Below are positions 1-4,156 of a stretch of DNA of 4,227 nt, piece after piece (within the stretch, counting starts at the first letter, position 1; every line of letters begins with the position of its first letter). Source of the stretch: a virus (Duplodnaviria > Heunggongvirae > Uroviricota > Caudoviricetes); the IMG/VR virus record IMGVR_UViG_2554235189_000008; one strand, given 5' to 3'. A model generated the notes under the pieces. The model saw nothing but the letters and a program-made list of their open reading frames with translations, was not told the origin of the DNA and ran no database searches. The position numbers were made by a program, and so were the translations under genes.

Positions 1-19
1 GGATTCCCGGGGCGGTTCA
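1..19 (-). mobile_element. Terminal inverted repeat (left end) of an IS3-family insertion sequence, IS629/IS1203-like; the element body lies outside the window to the left
   Basis: Reverse complement of 1-19 is TGAACCGCCCCGGGAATCC, an 18/20 inverted match to 4168-4187. It starts with TG as IS3-family termini do, and the lambda-like O reading frame breaks exactly at 19/20. The IS629 name is from memory. Confidence 0.6.
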
Positions 20-223
20 GTCCATTGGTTTATTCCACCCATAGGTTTTACGCAGAATGGCAAGCAGCACTTTAAACTGTCGCTTGGTCAGATCTGCGCC
101 TGAATAAGCCTCAATCAGCATATTTGATAGTCTGGCGTAACCATCATCGAGATCTGCCACATTACGCTCCTGTTCGGCAAAGTTACCTCTGCCGAAGTTG
201 AGTATTTTTGCTGTATTTGTCAT
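17..223 (-). pseudogene. O: Replication initiator O, N-terminal 68 codons only, truncated by the IS insertion
   Basis: Translation MTNTAKILNFGRGNFAEQERNVADLDDGYARLSNMLIEAYSGADLTKRQFKVLLAILRKTYGWNKPMD matches my memory of the lambda O N-terminus almost residue for residue. The in-frame stop (revcomp of 17-19) is supplied by the IS terminus TGA. No ori or O C-terminal domain is present. Confidence 0.8.
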
Positions 224-233: not shown

Positions 234-309
234 GTGGATTGATCCAGTAATTCCCTCAGAATTCCATCTGGATTTGTTCAGAACGCTCGGTTGCCGCCGG
301 GCGTTTTTT
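234..309 (+). ncRNA. oop: oop-like antisense RNA (antisense to the 3' end of cII)
   Basis: Plus-strand sequence GATCCAGTAAT...CCATCTGGATTTGTTCAGAACGCTCGGTTGCCGCCGGGCGTTTTTTATT is close to the lambda oop/t0 region as I recall it. It ends in a GC-rich hairpin plus T6 and lies in the cII-O junction overlapping the cII 3' end. Confidence 0.55.
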
Positions 310-552
310 ATTGGTGATTCCATCAAGCGCATACTTAAAAGCCCTGCTAATCGGACTGATGTCTGATGCCATTCCGAAAGCACACAGGACCGAAGCAATA
401 AACCGCCAGTCCGTTCTGCTTATCTTCGATTCATGACAGCCAATCATCTTTGCCAGACCGCGCTGGGTAAGCGTTGACAGGTTGATGAGTAAATCAGTTT
501 CAGCGCGATCAATTTCTCGCTGTGATAGTTTGCTGTAACTTGTTTGTTCCAT
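256..552 (-). CDS. cII: cII-like transcriptional activator (mosaic: C-terminus matches lambda cII, N-terminal two-thirds diverged)
   Basis: 98-aa ORF. C-terminal ...TNKKRPAATERSEQIQMEF is identical to the lambda cII C-terminus as I recall it. Position between cro and O is syntenic with lambda. Confidence 0.85.
   Translation of the reverse strand: MEQTSYSKLSQREIDRAETDLLINLSTLTQRGLAKMIGCHESKISRTDWRFIASVLCAFGMASDISPISRAFKYALDGITNKKRPAATERSEQIQMEF
284..309 (+). terminator. Rho-independent terminator (oop terminator, lambda t0-like)
   Basis: Stem CGCTCGG (284-290) / CCGGGCG (297-303) with one G-U pair, loop TTGCCG, followed by TTTTTT (304-309). Confidence 0.7.
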
Positions 553-562
553 TTCTTAAGAT
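530..562 (+). promoter_or_regulatory. Possible PRE-like cII-activated promoter (TTGC-N6-TTGT at 530-543, -10-like TAAGAT at 556-561)
   Basis: TTGC N6 TTGT resembles the lambda cII recognition repeat TTGC-N6-TTGC flanking a -35. It sits at the cII 5' end and is oriented toward cro/cI as PRE is in lambda. Weak. Confidence 0.3.
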
Positions 563-637
563 TTCCAATAGTGAATAGCTAGTTGAAAGGTATGCGTGGA
601 AACGCATATGGCCTTAGTTGGTCAGATATATTGGGAC

Positions 638-652
638 TCGCTTTGTCAGCGA
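638..652 (-). promoter_or_regulatory. nutR boxB-like RNA hairpin (minus-strand transcript 5'-UCGCU GACAA AGCGA-3')
   Basis: 5-bp stem with pentaloop GACAA, between cro and cII on the PR transcript. The 13-nt core CGCTGACAAAGCG is identical to the hairpin upstream of N at 3594-3606. Confidence 0.45.
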
Positions 653-690
653 CGTAGGACGAATGTCCATTGTGAAAATAGCGGTGTTAC

Positions 691-924
691 TTATGCAGCC
701 GATGCTCTACGCGATACGAACACTAGGTTTTCCTTTTTCACAGGTTTATAACCCGTGAAATTACGAGTAGCTTCTTCGATTGCATTCGCTTTATCAGGGG
801 AAGCTCTTCGAAATCCATATGCAATCTGGTCAAGATAGCCAACTGAAGTTTTCGCTAATGCGGCGAGTCGCTTCCATTCCTCACTAGAAGCCTCTTTTCG
901 CCAGCGTAGTAGTTCATTACTCAT
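691..924 (-). CDS. cro: Cro-like HTH repressor, divergent from cI
   Basis: 77-aa ORF transcribed divergently from cI across the operator region. SD GGAGG (revcomp of 931-935) lies 6 nt before the ATG. Probable HTH in ...TSVGYLDQIAYGFRRASPDKANAIEEAT... Confidence 0.75.
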   Translation of the reverse strand: MSNELLRWRKEASSEEWKRLAALAKTSVGYLDQIAYGFRRASPDKANAIEEATRNFTGYKPVKKENLVFVSRRASAA

Positions 925-935
925 TAGTGCCTCCG

Positions 936-1019
936 TTTATCACACAGAACAACTTTACCATTTTGATAAATCAACCGCAATGTAAATTTATCATATTGCG
1001 TATTTATCCATTTGCTAAA
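936..1019. promoter_or_regulatory. OR operator region: four 17-bp sites built on TTTATC-N5-GATAAA half-sites (936-952, 954-970, 987-1003, 1003-1019)
   Basis: Read directly: TTTATCACACAGAACAA, TTTACCATTTTGATAAA, TTTATCATATTGCGTAT, TTTATCCATTTGCTAAA at roughly 17-bp periodicity between the divergent cro and cI starts. Confidence 0.6.
952..980 (-). promoter_or_regulatory. PR-like promoter toward cro (-35 TTGCGG = revcomp 975-980, 17-nt spacer, -10 TAAAGT = revcomp 952-957)
   Basis: Sigma70-like hexamers with 17-bp spacing on the minus strand, overlapping operator sites 936-952 and 954-970, about 25 nt upstream of the cro SD. Confidence 0.45.
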
Positions 1020-1037
1020 TAGAGGGAAAATTGTGAG

Positions 1038-1742
1038 ATGGAAAACAAAGATATTCGCAAATCGAATCTGGCGTTTTTGCTAGATGAGCATAAAAAAATC
1101 GCGGGTAACACTAATGCAAGCTTTGCCGATAAGCTTGGGGTTAGCCCTTCTCAACTCACGCAAGTCTCCGGTGAAAAAAGCACTCGAAACATAGGGGATA
1201 AACTAGCAAGAAAATTTGAAGCCGCGCTTGGGTTACCTAATGGGTGGCTTGATTTGGTACATGATGTAACACCAATTGCATCATGCTCAGATTCTTTAAC
1301 TTTTGTCGGTCAGGTAAGAAAAGGGTTAGTGCGCGTGGTTGGTGAGGCAATTCTTGGTGTTGATGGTGCCATCGAGATGACCGAAGAGCGCGATGGGTGG
1401 CTCAAAATTTATAGCGATGATCCAGATGCCTTTGGTCTTCGTGTGAAAGGAGACAGCATGTGGCCCAGAATAAAATCAGGAGAATATGTACTCATTGAGC
1501 CTAACACCAAAGTATTCCCGGGTGATGAGGTGTTTGTCAGAACCGTTGAAGGACACAACATGATTAAGGTTCTTGGCTATGACAGAGATGGAGAATACCA
1601 ATTTACAAGCATTAACCAGGATCACAGGCCTATAACGTTGCCTTATCATCAAGTAGCAAAGGTGGAGTATGTAGCTGGTATTCTGAAGCAATCTCGCCAT
1701 CTGGATGACATCGAGGCAAGGGAGTGGCTGAAAAGTTCGTGA
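1038..1742 (+). CDS. cI: CI-type prophage repressor, N-terminal HTH plus C-terminal S24 (LexA-like) autopeptidase domain
   Basis: 234-aa ORF. HTH-like segment ASFADKLGVSPSQLTQVSG, and the S24 catalytic-serine motif GDSMWP with a downstream Lys (MIKVL). Divergent from cro across the operators. Confidence 0.9.
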   Translation: MENKDIRKSNLAFLLDEHKKIAGNTNASFADKLGVSPSQLTQVSGEKSTRNIGDKLARKFEAALGLPNGWLDLVHDVTPIASCSDSLTFVGQVRKGLVRVVGEAILGVDGAIEMTEERDGWLKIYSDDPDAFGLRVKGDSMWPRIKSGEYVLIEPNTKVFPGDEVFVRTVEGHNMIKVLGYDRDGEYQFTSINQDHRPITLPYHQVAKVEYVAGILKQSRHLDDIEAREWLKSS

Positions 1743-1802
1743 CTTCATCGTCACATAGCTGGTAACCAGTGGCCAGAAGAAACGTTTGGGTGAGGAGGAT
1801 AG

Positions 1803-2144
1803 ATGGCGTTCACTGACCTTGAATATCAAGCGGTCAAAAAAGAAGTTCACCAATTCATTGAAAGCATAAGGCCGCCTGAACATATCCGCAATGAACTGGA
1901 TATTGTTTATAGCATCAATGACCAAACGATAGATATCGGCGAACAGCGCCCCGTGTGGCAGGGCAACCCAGGTGAAACAAACATCCTGCCATCAGCAAGA
2001 ATCAAGTACATACGTTCTCTGGATAGATGGAAAATCTATTGGATGCGGAAGGATATGAAATGGCATCAGTACAGTACTGAACTTTCGCTGACTGATGCGC
2101 TTGAGCTTGTGCGTGCTGACCCGGATTGCTGCTTCTTCGGATGA
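1803..2144 (+). CDS. Hypothetical protein (113 aa), first gene of the cI-downstream accessory cassette
   Basis: Strong SD GAGGAGG (1792-1798) 4 nt before ATG 1803. Co-directional with cI, 60-bp gap after the cI stop. Trp-rich C-terminal half and a terminal DPDCCFFG. I cannot assign a family. Confidence 0.75.
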   Translation: MAFTDLEYQAVKKEVHQFIESIRPPEHIRNELDIVYSINDQTIDIGEQRPVWQGNPGETNILPSARIKYIRSLDRWKIYWMRKDMKWHQYSTELSLTDALELVRADPDCCFFG

Positions 2145-2214
2145 GTGAAGAGACGTTTGGATGATGGATGATCGCAGAGATGCTCGTAGAGCATACAGCG
2201 ATGCAGGAGAATTT

Positions 2215-2649
2215 ATGGCACTTAATTTAGAAAGAATATCTTTTATAACCCCATTTGATAGCAGCGAAGAACCCAACCAACCGACGCTTAATTTTACATG
2301 CAATGAATTTCCTGCGCGGCTATCAATTGATTTCAGGGTTGGTATGATCGGGTTGAAACCAAATTCAAGATATAATTTGGGTATTATGGTAATCCCCGCG
2401 CACCTAATTATAAAAAAAGGTGAGGAAATTCAATTCCCTGACGGCTCTTCGGAATCAGTTTCACTTTTCATCGATACGAAAGATAGCCATTTTGAAACAG
2501 GGGTTGGCGGACAGGTAATAGTAACATTGAAAGAAATTAGGGTCCCAGCTAAAGGGCTGTATAGTGTTATAGGGATATTGCAAGATAATGAAGACCCTAA
2601 AAATGAACTTCATAAAAATGAATCATTTTTCACCGTAGAGCTATTATGA
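2215..2649 (+). CDS. Hypothetical protein (144 aa from ATG 2215; the longest ORF starts at 2161 and gives 162 aa), second gene of the accessory cassette
   Basis: ATG 2215 is preceded by AGGAG (2205-2209) at 5-nt spacing; ATG 2161 has no good SD. The stop TGA (2647-2649) overlaps the next gene's ATG (2646-2648). No recognisable motif. Confidence 0.7.
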   Translation: MALNLERISFITPFDSSEEPNQPTLNFTCNEFPARLSIDFRVGMIGLKPNSRYNLGIMVIPAHLIIKKGEEIQFPDGSSESVSLFIDTKDSHFETGVGGQVIVTLKEIRVPAKGLYSVIGILQDNEDPKNELHKNESFFTVELL

Positions 2650-3266
2650 GTGACGACAGTAATTTAAATAATCATGGAAAGCAAGACACCAACATATCTG
2701 AAAGCCGGAGGTTGAAGGTTGTTGGCGGTTCCGATTTTGAGGCTGAATTTGATAATTCTCCCACCAAGGTGCAAAATAATTACATAAAACCGCCACAAAC
2801 GGAGGAAGAAGTGGGAACGATCAGCAGAGAGGAACTTGATGCTCGCTTAGCTGCTAATAAAGCAGAGATGGAGTCTATTGCTTCTTCCATTAGGGCTGAC
2901 ATGGCTCTATCTCGTGAAAGCGTTAATGTCCAATTTGCATCACTTAATGCAGCCATAAGCTCTCTATCGTCCAAGATCGATGGAAAGATGGATAGCGCTG
3001 CTGGCGATATAAAAGCAATTAATGGGAGATTCGAAGGAATTCAAGGACAAATAACAGGGGTTAATACCGCAATTAGTGGTGTTCAGTCGGGTATTTCTAT
3101 ACGATTAGCCATTTTTAGTGTCATTATCGCTGTAATAGTTGCGATTCCCGGGCTGGTATCAGCTTTAAAGTCAGACCACGCACCTTTGCAACAGCCTTCC
3201 ACTTTGCAAGCGCCGCCACAAAATACCCAGCCAACAGACAACAAAAAAACCACTCCCCAGCATTAA
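2646..3266 (+). CDS. Hypothetical membrane-anchored protein (206 aa): N-terminal soluble region with predicted coiled-coil character, one C-terminal TM helix, Pro/Gln-rich tail
   Basis: Single hydrophobic stretch IRLAIFSVIIAVIVAIPGLVSAL (about residues 152-173, nt ~3100-3165). Preceding Ala/Ser/Ile-rich heptad-like sequence. ATGA start/stop overlap with the upstream gene. Confidence 0.75.
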   Translation: MSDDSNLNNHGKQDTNISESRRLKVVGGSDFEAEFDNSPTKVQNNYIKPPQTEEEVGTISREELDARLAANKAEMESIASSIRADMALSRESVNVQFASLNAAISSLSSKIDGKMDSAAGDIKAINGRFEGIQGQITGVNTAISGVQSGISIRLAIFSVIIAVIVAIPGLVSALKSDHAPLQQPSTLQAPPQNTQPTDNKKTTPQH

Positions 3267-3272
3267 CGCATT

Positions 3273-3300
3273 AACCCGGCCTCAGCGCCGGGTTTTCTTT
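3273..3300 (+). terminator. Rho-independent terminator ending the cI/accessory operon
   Basis: AACCCGGC (3273-3280), loop CTCAGC, GCCGGGTT (3287-3294), then TTTTCTTT through 3300. It starts 7 nt after the stop of the last cassette gene. Confidence 0.7.
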
Positions 3301-3404
3301 GCCTCACGATCCCCACACCTAAAAACACATAACCAATTGTATTTGTTGAAAAATAAATAGATACAACTTGCTAAACAACGCAATCCAGATCTCCCTCAAA
3401 TCTC

Positions 3405-3530
3405 TTTATTTATCCTGTCGAATTCCTACAACAAAATAAAACACCATAAGAATCAATACGATATTTGAAAACCAAGAGAATTTATCATTTTGCTATTGCC
3501 ATTAATTTATCATTCCGATAAAGTTCACCC
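3405..3530 (+). promoter_or_regulatory. OL/PL-like region: TTTATC operator sites (3409-3414; 17-mers 3481-3497 and 3506-3522) and PL-like promoter (-35 TTGCCA 3496-3501, 17-nt spacer, -10 TAAAGT 3519-3524)
   Basis: Site 3506-3522 TTTATCATTCCGATAAA is a perfect inverted repeat of the half-site seen in OR and overlaps the -10. The same -10 hexamer TAAAGT is used by the PR candidate. Confidence 0.45.
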
Positions 3531-3592
3531 ATCAGCAGGACGCACTACTCACCAGGGCGGTGAATATACAACGATTCGAATATGAATCTACG

Positions 3593-3607
3593 GCGCTGAC
3601 AAAGCGC
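3593..3607 (+). promoter_or_regulatory. nutL boxB-like RNA hairpin (5'-GCGCU GACAA AGCGC-3')
   Basis: 5-bp stem plus GACAA pentaloop about 60 nt downstream of the PL candidate and upstream of N. Core identical to the nutR candidate at 639-651. Confidence 0.45.
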
Positions 3608-3618
3608 AATAACCAAAG

Positions 3619-3759
3619 TGAACTTTGGGGTGTGGTGAAGGGTTCATGGACGGGAATATGTCGCACGTAAAGCGGCGAGGCCTGTAGGACTATTGCCGAA
3701 TTGAAGTAGGCCGAAACAGGTCGAAATGGGTCTCCCACCTACCACACCACCAAAGTTCA
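3619..3759 (+). ncRNA. Structured leader element upstream of N: 18-bp long-range stem (3619-3636 with 3741-3759, one bulged A at 3749) enclosing about 104 nt
   Basis: Revcomp of 3619-3628 (TGAACTTTGG) equals 3750-3759 (CCAAAGTTCA); revcomp of 3629-3635 (GGTGTGG) equals 3742-3748 (CCACACC). The 3' arm ends 3 nt before the N SD AGGAGG (3762-3767). Confidence 0.45.
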
Positions 3760-3772
3760 TCAGGAGGTCTAT

Positions 3773-4156
3773 ATGACACGCAGAACTCAGTTCAAAGGCA
3801 ATTCACATTCTCGTCGTCGTGAGCGTTTAAAGGCAAAGGCATTAGCTAACGGCGTGCTGGCCCGCGAAGAAGCAATAAGTTCAGAAGTATTACACCGCCC
3901 TACTCTAAGCAGAGCGCAGATTCAGGCTAAAGGTACTCACGAAACGCCTGAGCGCATAGAAGACGCTAAGCCAATTAAGTTCATGGCACAGGACGTGATC
4001 TGGCAGCAGAAAGAATACAGACGCAATCTGGAGCGAGCGGCCATTGTGTACGCGAATGAGTTTGGACATAAGCAACCAGAAACTGGTGTATGTCTTCCAA
4101 ACGTAGCCATTTACGCTGCAGGCTACCGGAAATCCAAACAACTGACAGCAAGATAA
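3773..4156 (+). CDS. N: N-like transcription antitermination protein (127 aa)
   Basis: N-terminal arginine-rich motif GNSHSRRRERLKAKALANG resembles the lambda N ARM (QTRRRERRAEKQAQW). Position downstream of OL/PL and a boxB hairpin. SD AGGAGG 5 nt before the ATG. From memory the sequence resembles N of H-19B/933W-type phages. Confidence 0.75.
   Translation: MTRRTQFKGNSHSRRRERLKAKALANGVLAREEAISSEVLHRPTLSRAQIQAKGTHETPERIEDAKPIKFMAQDVIWQQKEYRRNLERAAIVYANEFGHKQPETGVCLPNVAIYAAGYRKSKQLTAR

Follow-up and report, generated by a model that had tools for sequence, protein, structure and literature searches.

A lambdoid immunity region with operators and early promoters that very likely belong to the H-19B type

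The window, that is, the whole stretch of 4,227 nucleotides analysed here, is a lambdoid immunity region that runs opposite to the conventional lambda map. O', cII and cro lie on one side of OR and cI diverges on the other; beyond cI are found three cargo genes, a terminator, OL with PL, nutL and N (Table 1). The open reading frame map, the annotated homologues and the Pfam matches concur on the arrangement expected of a lambdoid switch, with the repressor and cro genes diverging from an OR of several operators and with further operators, those of OL, upstream of N.

The cI repressor is identical to that of H-19B over its whole length (234/234 residues, 100%) and falls in phrog_4 (transcriptional repressor). 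Its Pfam match to Peptidase_S24 has an E-value of 3.8e-16, and that of its N-terminal region to HTH_3 is weak (E = 0.0041, 17.6 bits versus a Pfam cut-off of 23). A sequence search of the PDB returned no solved relative of the repressor, only spurious matches to pseudoazurin. Cro, which is expected to be the second protein to occupy the same operators as cI, shares 76 of 77 residues with H-19B Cro. The N gene is so annotated in BP-4795, AU5Stx1 and H-19B. The window also contains a Phage_CII Pfam match; the lambda cII site TTGC-N6-TTGC is absent from it, and Rfam gave no match in it.

Table 1. Genes, operators and promoters of the window; -10 and -35 elements are given in the direction of transcription.
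Feature	Coordinates	Strand	Sequence or elements	Remarks
cro (77 aa)	691..924	-		phrog_35
OR0	936..952		TTTATCACACAGAACAA	Fourth OR site; downstream of PR -10, over predicted PR start
PR	952..980	-	-35 TTGCGG (980->975), 17-bp spacer, -10 TAAAGT (957->952)	Transcribes cro
OR1	954..970		TTTACCATTTTGATAAA	Overlaps PR spacer and -10; annotated in GQ499358
Annotated 'OR2' register	979..995		AATGTAAATTTATCATA	GQ499358; unsupported in this analysis
Third OR site, functional OR2 candidate	987..1003		TTTATCATATTGCGTAT	Register of the preliminary description
PRM candidate	1003..1031	+	-35 TTTATC (1003-1008), 17-bp spacer, -10 GAAAAT (1026-1031)	
OR3	1003..1019		TTTATCCATTTGCTAAA	Nearest cI; overlaps PRM candidate; annotated in GQ499358
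cI repressor (234 aa)	1038..1742	+		N-terminal HTH-like domain and S24 autopeptidase domain
OL3 (weak)	3449..3465		AGAATCAATACGATATT	Annotated in GQ499358; missed by the preliminary description
OL2	3481..3497		TTTATCATTTTGCTATT	Overlaps PL -35 by 2 bp; annotated in GQ499358
PL	3496..3524	+	-35 TTGCCA, 17-bp spacer, -10 TAAAGT	Transcribes nutL and N
OL1	3506..3522		TTTATCATTCCGATAAA	Perfect palindrome; overlaps PL spacer and -10; annotated in GQ499358
N antiterminator gene	3773..4156	+		First gene of PL operon; Pfam N_peptide E = 2.2e-15

A preliminary description of this DNA had proposed that 17-bp sites with TTTATC/GATAAA half-sites recur in two control regions. The counts bear this out, far above chance. 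TTTATC occurs 11 times on the two strands for 3.3 expected, a number reached by none of 200 dinucleotide-preserving shuffles, and 8 of the 11 fall within 936-1008 or 3409-3522. With up to two mismatches, TTTAKC-N5-GMTAAA has five matches (at 936, 954, 1003, 3481 and 3506), all in OR or OL, versus 0.93 expected and with 0/200 shuffles reaching that number. The site at 3506-3522 is indeed the perfect palindrome that had been described. The region thus holds several partially dyad-symmetric operators of one consensus, with O1 overlapping the -10 element of both PR and PL.

The individual sites were compared in 54 loci encoding the same N-terminal domain (32 loci at OL), with a held-out weight matrix ranking 4211 17-mers, and with Pantoea-type relatives, which comprise Pantoea prophages and the IMG/VR contigs L006-L008 and L059-L062. 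The cI N-terminal domain of these relatives is 60-65% identical to that of the window and their Cro 78%, the Cro of L006 being identical over the segment TSVGYLDQIAYGFRRAS. Common variants in the 54 loci avoid OR1, OR3, OL1, OL2 and the half-site 987-992. OR1, which has a single mismatch to the palindrome, shows one central-base variant only, and has an identity of 0.79 to its counterpart in the relatives (TTTAGCGTTATGCTAAA). OR3 shows one rare variant and an identity of 0.86. Variants of OL1 (counterpart TTTAGCATAACGCTAAA) are rare and limited to the central base, and OL2 is invariant in the 32 loci, with an identity of 0.96 to the relatives. OL3 ranks 24 with the weight matrix, for which 18.6 sites of equal score are expected per shuffled window; it has a positional counterpart in the Pantoea-type relatives, TAAATCATTCTGCTAAA, 33 bp from OL2 and with the same GATA->GCTA change.

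OR0 and 987-1003 rank 5th and 6th of the 4211 17-mers, with one good half-site each. The left half of OR0 is invariant in 53 of the 54 loci and its right half varies (949-951); no clear counterpart was found among the Pantoea-type relatives (identity 0.49). The site at 987-1003 has a perfect left half, TTTATC at 987, that is invariant in the 54 loci, and a poor right half; its common variants are found at 1000 and, in the centre, at 994 and 996. Thirteen of its 17 positions agree with OL2. Its counterpart in the relatives, TTTAGCATTTTGCATAT, has an identity of 0.82 and unchanged spacing, and its half-site shows the same T->G change.

The layout and spacing of OR1, the 987-1003-like site, OR3, OL1, OL2 and OL3 are the same in the Pantoea-type loci, as is the promoter architecture, and the half-sites at OR1, 987-1003, OL1 and OL2 have mostly changed from TTTATC to TTTAGC. 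Between the sites, spacer identity is only 35-45%. The balance tips slightly towards the view that the Pantoea-type operators have shifted from TTTATC towards TTTAGC together with their repressor.

PR and PL share one plan, consisting of TTGCxx, 4 nt, the 17-bp O1, and then GT to complete the -10 hexamer TAAAGT. Both had been put forward on the basis of TAAAGT and TTGCxx at 17-bp spacing, and they stand out in that TTGC-N19-TAAAGT has exactly two matches in the window, versus 0.01 expected. The overlap of -10 and operator was also found as described, the first four bases of the hexamer, TAAA, being the last four of 954-970 and 3506-3522. A consensus promoter scan found PL independently and missed PR, because TTGCGG matches TTGACA at only three of six positions. 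PR in the Pantoea-type relatives reads TTGCTT or TTGATT followed by TAAACT, with the TTG of the -35 and A2 and T6 of the -10 kept; PL keeps TTGCCA and TAAAnT. The transcription starts of PR and PL would lie where these hexamers predict them. Of the 32 OL loci, two carry T3524C, a change that would impair the proposed PL -10; these two may be defective prophages.

The hexamers of the PRM candidate are weak. This promoter would be leaderless, with a predicted start at A1038 of the cI ATG, which places 987-1003 at -43 and OR3 at -27. The Pantoea-type relatives (GAGAAT) retain GAnAAT-N6-ATG, as does the common A1028G variant. A further promoter-like match, TTAGCA-17-TATGAT on the - strand (1018->990), was rejected, as the common T994A variant abolishes its -10 and the match is not kept in the Pantoea-type relatives.

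The sites and promoters very likely constitute the operator regions and early promoters of the H-19B immunity type. The repressor is the same, Cro nearly so, and the OR and OL operator DNA is the same. The OL region (3274-3632) is 100% identical to H-19B and the OR/cI/cro DNA 97.6% identical; OR differs from that of H-19B (AF034975) at one base, 974, in a spacer, and the control regions are otherwise the same element. The window differs from H-19B in the cargo genes between cI and N (1794-3273) and in the N-leader segment (3633-3744). The same immunity module is found in phage ST2-8624 (GQ499358; KU238070) and in BP-4795 and Stx1a-converting phages. GQ499358 annotates OR0-OR3 and OL1-OL3, the first as 'OR0 repressor binding site', and a review, in its passage citing Shi & Friedman 2001, gives four OR operators for H-19B. 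The general reading of the locus as OR and OL operators with the PR and PL promoters of a lambdoid repressor agrees with this record, the review and the H-19B identity. Five of the six operators initially listed coincide with GQ499358 (OR0, OR1, OR3, OL1 and OL2), and the other, the third OR site at 987-1003, differs from it by 8 bp. GQ499358 and KU238070 disagree with each other on this module, all OR sites being shifted by 2-3 bp in the latter, and OR0 and the OL sites omitted.

It is barely credible that TTTATC/GATAAA recurs simply because promoter DNA is AT-rich, with no role in protein binding. The intergenic regions are AT-rich, loose matches to the palindrome with three mismatches are also found within genes, and TAAAGT alone is not over-represented (4 versus 2.3 expected). 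Yet the dinucleotide-preserving shuffles never reach the observed counts, the sites are kept with matching half-site changes across repressors diverged to 60-65% identity where the flanking spacers are not, and both GenBank and the review passage record repressor binding sites; this explanation is effectively refuted. It is also quite improbable that some of the elements with a single good half-site (OR0, 987-1003 and the TTTATC at 3409) are not cI dimer sites and instead are preferred by Cro or serve promoter functions, such as the TTGC inside 987-1003 or the TTTATC at 1003-1008 as PRM -35. Each does have one perfect and one poor half-site, and the window and the Pantoea-type relatives have the same HTH segment in Cro, so that Cro could account for the conservation. 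A second function is also hinted at by the right half of 987-1003, TTGCrTAT, which is both non-consensus and conserved. However, GenBank lists OR0 among the repressor binding sites, and four OR sites are counted in the review passage. The TTTATC at 3409-3425, rejected as a further OL operator, has a poor right half, is not conserved (0.32) and is not annotated; it is probably neither an operator nor functional in any other way.

The register of the third OR site has to be chosen between 987-1003 and the annotated 979-995. That the site is 979-995 as in GQ499358, a non-consensus operator filled through cooperativity, with the TTTATC at 987-992 as its cI-proximal half read in the wrong register, is rather unlikely. 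It gives a lambda-like OR1-OR2-OR3 centre spacing of 25 and 24 bp, the OL1-OL2 centre distance is likewise 25 bp, and the annotation was presumably transferred from the experimental H-19B paper. Were PRM to start near 1028, using TGn-TAAATA (1013-1021), 979-995 would centre at -41. This -10 is however the less likely one for PRM, as the conserved final T is missing and the relatives have TAAATG there. Moreover, 979-995 ranks 633rd of 4211 with the weight matrix and shares 4 of 12 positions with the palindrome; the left half (979-986) shows an identity of 0.40 to the relatives and is freely variable within the immunity type, 983 taking three alternative bases and 985 varying too. The transferred OR2 coordinates are unreliable, because the second annotation of the same phage (KU238070) puts oR2 at 982-998, and the 933W-type C-terminal domain that this repressor has is reported to be non-cooperative, according to a review. 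Comparison with the Pantoea-type relatives, variation in the 54 loci and the held-out weight matrix thus favour 987-1003. On balance, the functional OR2 of the H-19B immunity type would be 987-1003, sharing a base with OR3, and OR would be arranged in two close pairs, OR0/OR1 over PR with a spacing of 18 bp and OR2/OR3 over the leaderless PRM with one of 16 bp. The pairs would be separated by the PR -35, a non-lambda geometry conserved in Pantoea prophages.

Dimers of cI, with a probable N-terminal HTH and a self-cleaving S24 C-terminal domain, very likely bind the 17-bp TTTATC-N5-GATAAA sites, and Cro presumably binds the same sites. A G would be tolerated at position 5 of the half-site (TTTAKC). 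The strongest sites would be OR1 and OL1, which begin 4 bp after TTGCxx, fill the spacer and supply the TAAA of the -10, so that bound repressor would exclude RNA polymerase. OR0, over the predicted start, could provide further cover of PR, and PL would be flanked by OL2, overlapping its -35, and the weak OL3. On the cI side, OR is a continuous conserved block with the abutting sites 987-1003 and OR3, which may control PRM. Centred at -43 from the leaderless start, the position of lambda OR2, 987-1003 would allow activation, and OR3 over the PRM -35 and spacer would mediate negative autoregulation. Self-cleavage of cI, stimulated by RecA, would free PR and PL from repression. What the analysis shows directly is the identity to H-19B, the motif excess over chance, and the conservation of the motif in relatives with its matching changes; we infer the transcription starts, the occupancy by each protein and the activation geometry.

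As in lambda, cI and cro diverge from a multi-site OR, the operators are 17 bp long and partially symmetric, O1 overlaps the -10 in both PR and PL, and N follows PL; PRM, too, is probably leaderless, with a site for activation near -42/-43. The operators are unrelated in sequence to those of lambda, and the repressor has a C-terminal domain of the 933W type. Instead of three operators per region about 23-24 bp apart, OR has four, the extra one over the PR start, with centres at 944, 962, 995 (or 987 as annotated) and 1011, giving spacings of 18, 33 and 16 bp versus 24 and 23 bp in lambda. The four OR sites are a known peculiarity of H-19B and no reason to exclude it from the lambdoid group. 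933W and phi24B share the overall gene layout, and their repressor has a C-terminal domain that is 95% identical. Its N-terminal domain is unrelated, as are the operators (CGTAC/GAAC-type), and the annotated OL sites number only two; these phages are heteroimmune. In mEp043 the repressor also has a related C-terminal domain. The operators of mEp043, TTTACC-N4-GGTAAA, have a related half-site with a centre of 4 instead of 5 bp, and its N-terminal domain is much more diverged. That 933W-type phages and mEp043 use other operators is consistent with the proposal that the motif defines the immunity specificity of this repressor.

The observation is a correct re-discovery of operators and promoters already known. 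The repressor sites and early promoters of the H-19B immunity region were reportedly characterised experimentally by Shi & Friedman in 2001. As the operators have been described since that year, the finding adds no new biology, and even the arrangement of OR in two pairs is not new if the original footprints already show the 987-1003 register. The switch controls the induction of Stx1-converting prophages, so that these operators matter for the control of Shiga toxin expression. The practical value is modest: the operator grammar could be read correctly from the sequence alone, and the comparison speaks for a corrected register of OR2 and for a PRM model.

The window is a lambdoid immunity region, in an orientation reversed with respect to the usual lambda map (see table; genes from an ORF map and Pfam matches). 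BLAST searches of annotated phages and of E. coli genomes matched the cII-cro-cI and OL-N modules to BP-4795, ST2-8624, AU5Stx1 and many Stx1a-converting phages. The module is labelled "immunity region; similar to bacteriophage H19-B" in GQ499358, one of two annotations of ST2-8624. Upon direct comparison with H-19B (AF034975), cI was identical at 234 of 234 positions and Cro at 76 of 77. DNA identity was 97.6% over 16–1793 and 100% over the OL segment 3274–3632; OR contained a single difference, at spacer base 974.

Features of the immunity region, with identity to the Pantoea-type relatives
Feature	Coordinates	Strand	Source or description	Identity
Replication gene O, start	17–223	-	ORF map/Pfam	
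cII	256–552	-	ORF map/Pfam	
boxB-type hairpin (nutR)	638–652	-	TCGCTGACAAAGCGA; PR strand, between cro and cII	
cro	691–924	-	ORF map/Pfam	
OR	925–1037		intergenic, 113 bp	
OR0	936–952		GQ499358	0.49
OR1	954–970		GQ499358	0.79
PR	980→952	-	TTGCGG TTGA TTTATCAAAATGGTAAA GT	
oR1	956–972		KU238070	
OR2	979–995		GQ499358	
OR2, left half	979–986		GQ499358	0.40
oR2	982–998		KU238070	
Third OR site	987–1003		preliminary description	0.82
OR3	1003–1019		GQ499358	0.86
oR3	1005–1021		KU238070	
cI-type repressor, S24 peptidase domain	1038–1742	+	ORF map/Pfam	
Three cargo ORFs	1803–3266			
Cargo ORF 1	1803–2144		DUF3024/phrog_3467	
Cargo ORF 2	2161–2649		phrog_5893	
Cargo ORF 3	2646–3266		phrog_5820; hydrophobic C-terminal segment	
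Terminator	3273–3294			
Long intergenic region	between terminator and N		contains OL/PL	
OL3	3449–3465		GQ499358	0.54
OL2	3481–3497		GQ499358	0.96
PL	3496–3524	+	TTGCCA TTAA TTTATCATTCCGATAAA GT	
OL1	3506–3522		GQ499358	0.76
boxB-type hairpin (nutL)	3593–3607	+	GCGCTGACAAAGCGC; downstream of PL	
Antiterminator gene N	3773–4156	+	ORF map/Pfam	
Spacers				0.35–0.45

The hexamer TTTATC occurs 11 times in the window for 3.3 expected, a count reached in none of 200 shuffles, and eight copies lie inside the two control regions. With G or T allowed at half-site position 5 and at most two mismatches, the 17-mer matches only at 936, 954, 1003, 3481 and 3506 (0.93 expected; 0 of 200 shuffles as high). 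The repressor binding sites of GQ499358 were projected onto the window. All six TTTATC/GATAAA sites proposed at OR and OL in the preliminary description are present, as is its perfect palindrome at OL1, TTTATCATTCCGATAAA. Since five of the six coincide exactly with annotated sites, the operators and promoters are an already characterised element, correctly re-discovered; only the register of OR2 and the mismatch between public annotations are left to consider. The TTTATC at 3409, neither annotated nor conserved, is probably not an operator.

A half-site at 987 implies the third OR site of the preliminary description, 987–1003 (TTTATCATATTGCGTAT), whereas GQ499358 places OR2 at 979–995 (AATGTAAATTTATCATA); the three other OR sites agree. 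The second ST2-8624 annotation, KU238070, sets the OR operators (936–1021 equivalents) 2–3 bp apart from those of GQ499358, with 17-mers offset from the dyad symmetry, and includes neither OR0 nor the three OL sites found in GQ499358. Because of these discrepancies, database operator coordinates are only approximate. Filling of a non-consensus OR2 through cooperativity is argued against by the 933W-type C-terminal domain, common to H-19B cI, which according to a review gives no cooperative binding.

A half-site weight matrix was trained solely on OR1, OR3, OL1 and OL2, with OR0 and the third OR site held out. Among 4211 17-mers, OR0 ranked 5th and 987–1003 6th (about 0.9 sites scoring as high expected per shuffled window), the 979 register 633rd and the 982 register 4002nd. 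OL3 is weak by sequence, at rank 24. Among 54 loci with an identical cI N-terminal domain, OR1, OR3 and 987–993 are essentially invariant. Common variants occur at 943 and 949–951 (centre and right half of OR0, the left half of which is perfect and invariant), 972–976, 983 (three alternative bases) and 985 (left half of the GQ499358 OR2), 994 and 996 (centre of 987–1003), 1000 (G to A, as in Pantoea), and 1028, 1032 and 1036.

The diverged relatives are three Pantoea prophages and four IMG/VR contigs (L006–L008 and L059–L062; at about 3900–4000 and in the OL regions), with a cI N-terminal domain 60–65% identical and a Cro 78% identical to those of the window. The OR and OL of their H-19B-like immunity modules are collinear with the window, with the same OR centre spacings of 33 and 16 bp, but half-sites have mostly shifted from TTTATC to TTTAGC: OR1 reads TTTAGCGTTATGCTAAA, 987–1003 TTTAGCATTTTGCATAT, OL2 TTTAGCATTTTGCTATT and OL1 TTTAGCATAACGCTAAA, with OR3 unchanged (TTTATCGTATTGCTAAA). 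These modules are a natural example of joint repressor/operator change. In L006, OL1 (TTTAGCATAACGCTAAA) has exactly the sequence of OR1 read on the opposite strand. Across the relatives, the positional counterpart of OL3, TAAATCATTCTGCTAAA, lies 33 bp from OL2 and is a better match. As the aligned OR of the relatives has no counterpart of OR0, this site looks specific to the H-19B lineage. Diverged relatives, natural variation and the held-out matrix, as independent lines, all favour the 987–1003 register on sequence grounds. Immediately upstream of OL3, an A-rich block (AAAATAAAAC, 3436–3445) could be an UP-like or bending element; identity to the relatives is 0.73 over 3436–3448, and the flanking DNA is not conserved.

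The TAAAGT −10 and TTGCxx −35 hexamers with 17-bp spacing, suggested for both PR and PL, were borne out by exactly two matches to TTGC-N19-TAAAGT in the window (0.01 expected). Both promoters consist of a −35 hexamer, four bases and the 17-bp O1, the last four bases of which form the −10 with GT; the proposed overlap of −10 elements and operators thus holds. Repressor bound to OR1 and OL1, which fill the spacer and −10, would exclude RNA polymerase. OR0 would span about −7 to +10 of PR, and OL2 overlaps the PL −35. In two of 32 related loci compared at OL, T3524C would remove the final conserved T of the proposed PL −10; these may be defective prophages. The best-conserved PRM candidate is TTTATC (1003–1008), a 17-bp spacer and GAAAAT (1026–1031), and GAnAAT-N6-ATG persists among the relatives as well as in loci with the common A1028G change. 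It would start a leaderless mRNA at A1038 of the cI ATG, as in lambda. From this start, the centre of 987–1003 would lie at −43 (−42 for lambda OR2), suited to activation, and OR3 at −35 to −19, suited to autorepression. A rival candidate, TGn-TAAATA (1013–1021), does not have the T expected at the last position of a −10.

The proposal that the motif defines immunity specificity is supported by heteroimmune phages. The repressor of 933W/phi24B and the window cI have 95% identity in the C-terminal domain, and their N-terminal domains are unrelated; the operators annotated for 933W/phi24B belong to the CGTAC/GAAC type. The mEp043 cI, 50% identical overall, has TTTACC-N4-GGTAAA operators at OR and OL. 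In these sequences the operator set follows the repressor N-terminal domain, which supports the motif as definer of specificity.

The cII C-terminus is lambda-like (…NKKRPAATERSEQIQMEF; window 256–690). The lambda cII recognition repeat TTGC-N6-TTGC was not found in the window; a cII-dependent cI promoter must therefore rely on another repeat. The two boxB-type hairpins have a GACAA loop (two pattern matches, none expected). A long inverted repeat, 3619–3636/3741–3759 (TGAACTTTGGGGTGTGGT/ACCACACCACCAAAGTTCA), may form an RNase III-type leader hairpin just 5' of the N ribosome-binding site; it flanks an N-leader segment of about 112 bp (3633–3744) that matches AU5Stx1 and is different in H-19B and BP-4795. 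Among 5426 complete E. coli genomes, just 11 have at least 80% of the window together at a single site. The three cargo ORFs (within 1794–3273), which follow cI and precede the terminator on the upstream side of OL, differ from the cargo of H-19B, BP-4795 and AU5Stx1; their position, that of lambda rexAB, points to a possible module for exclusion or defence, expressed from the prophage.
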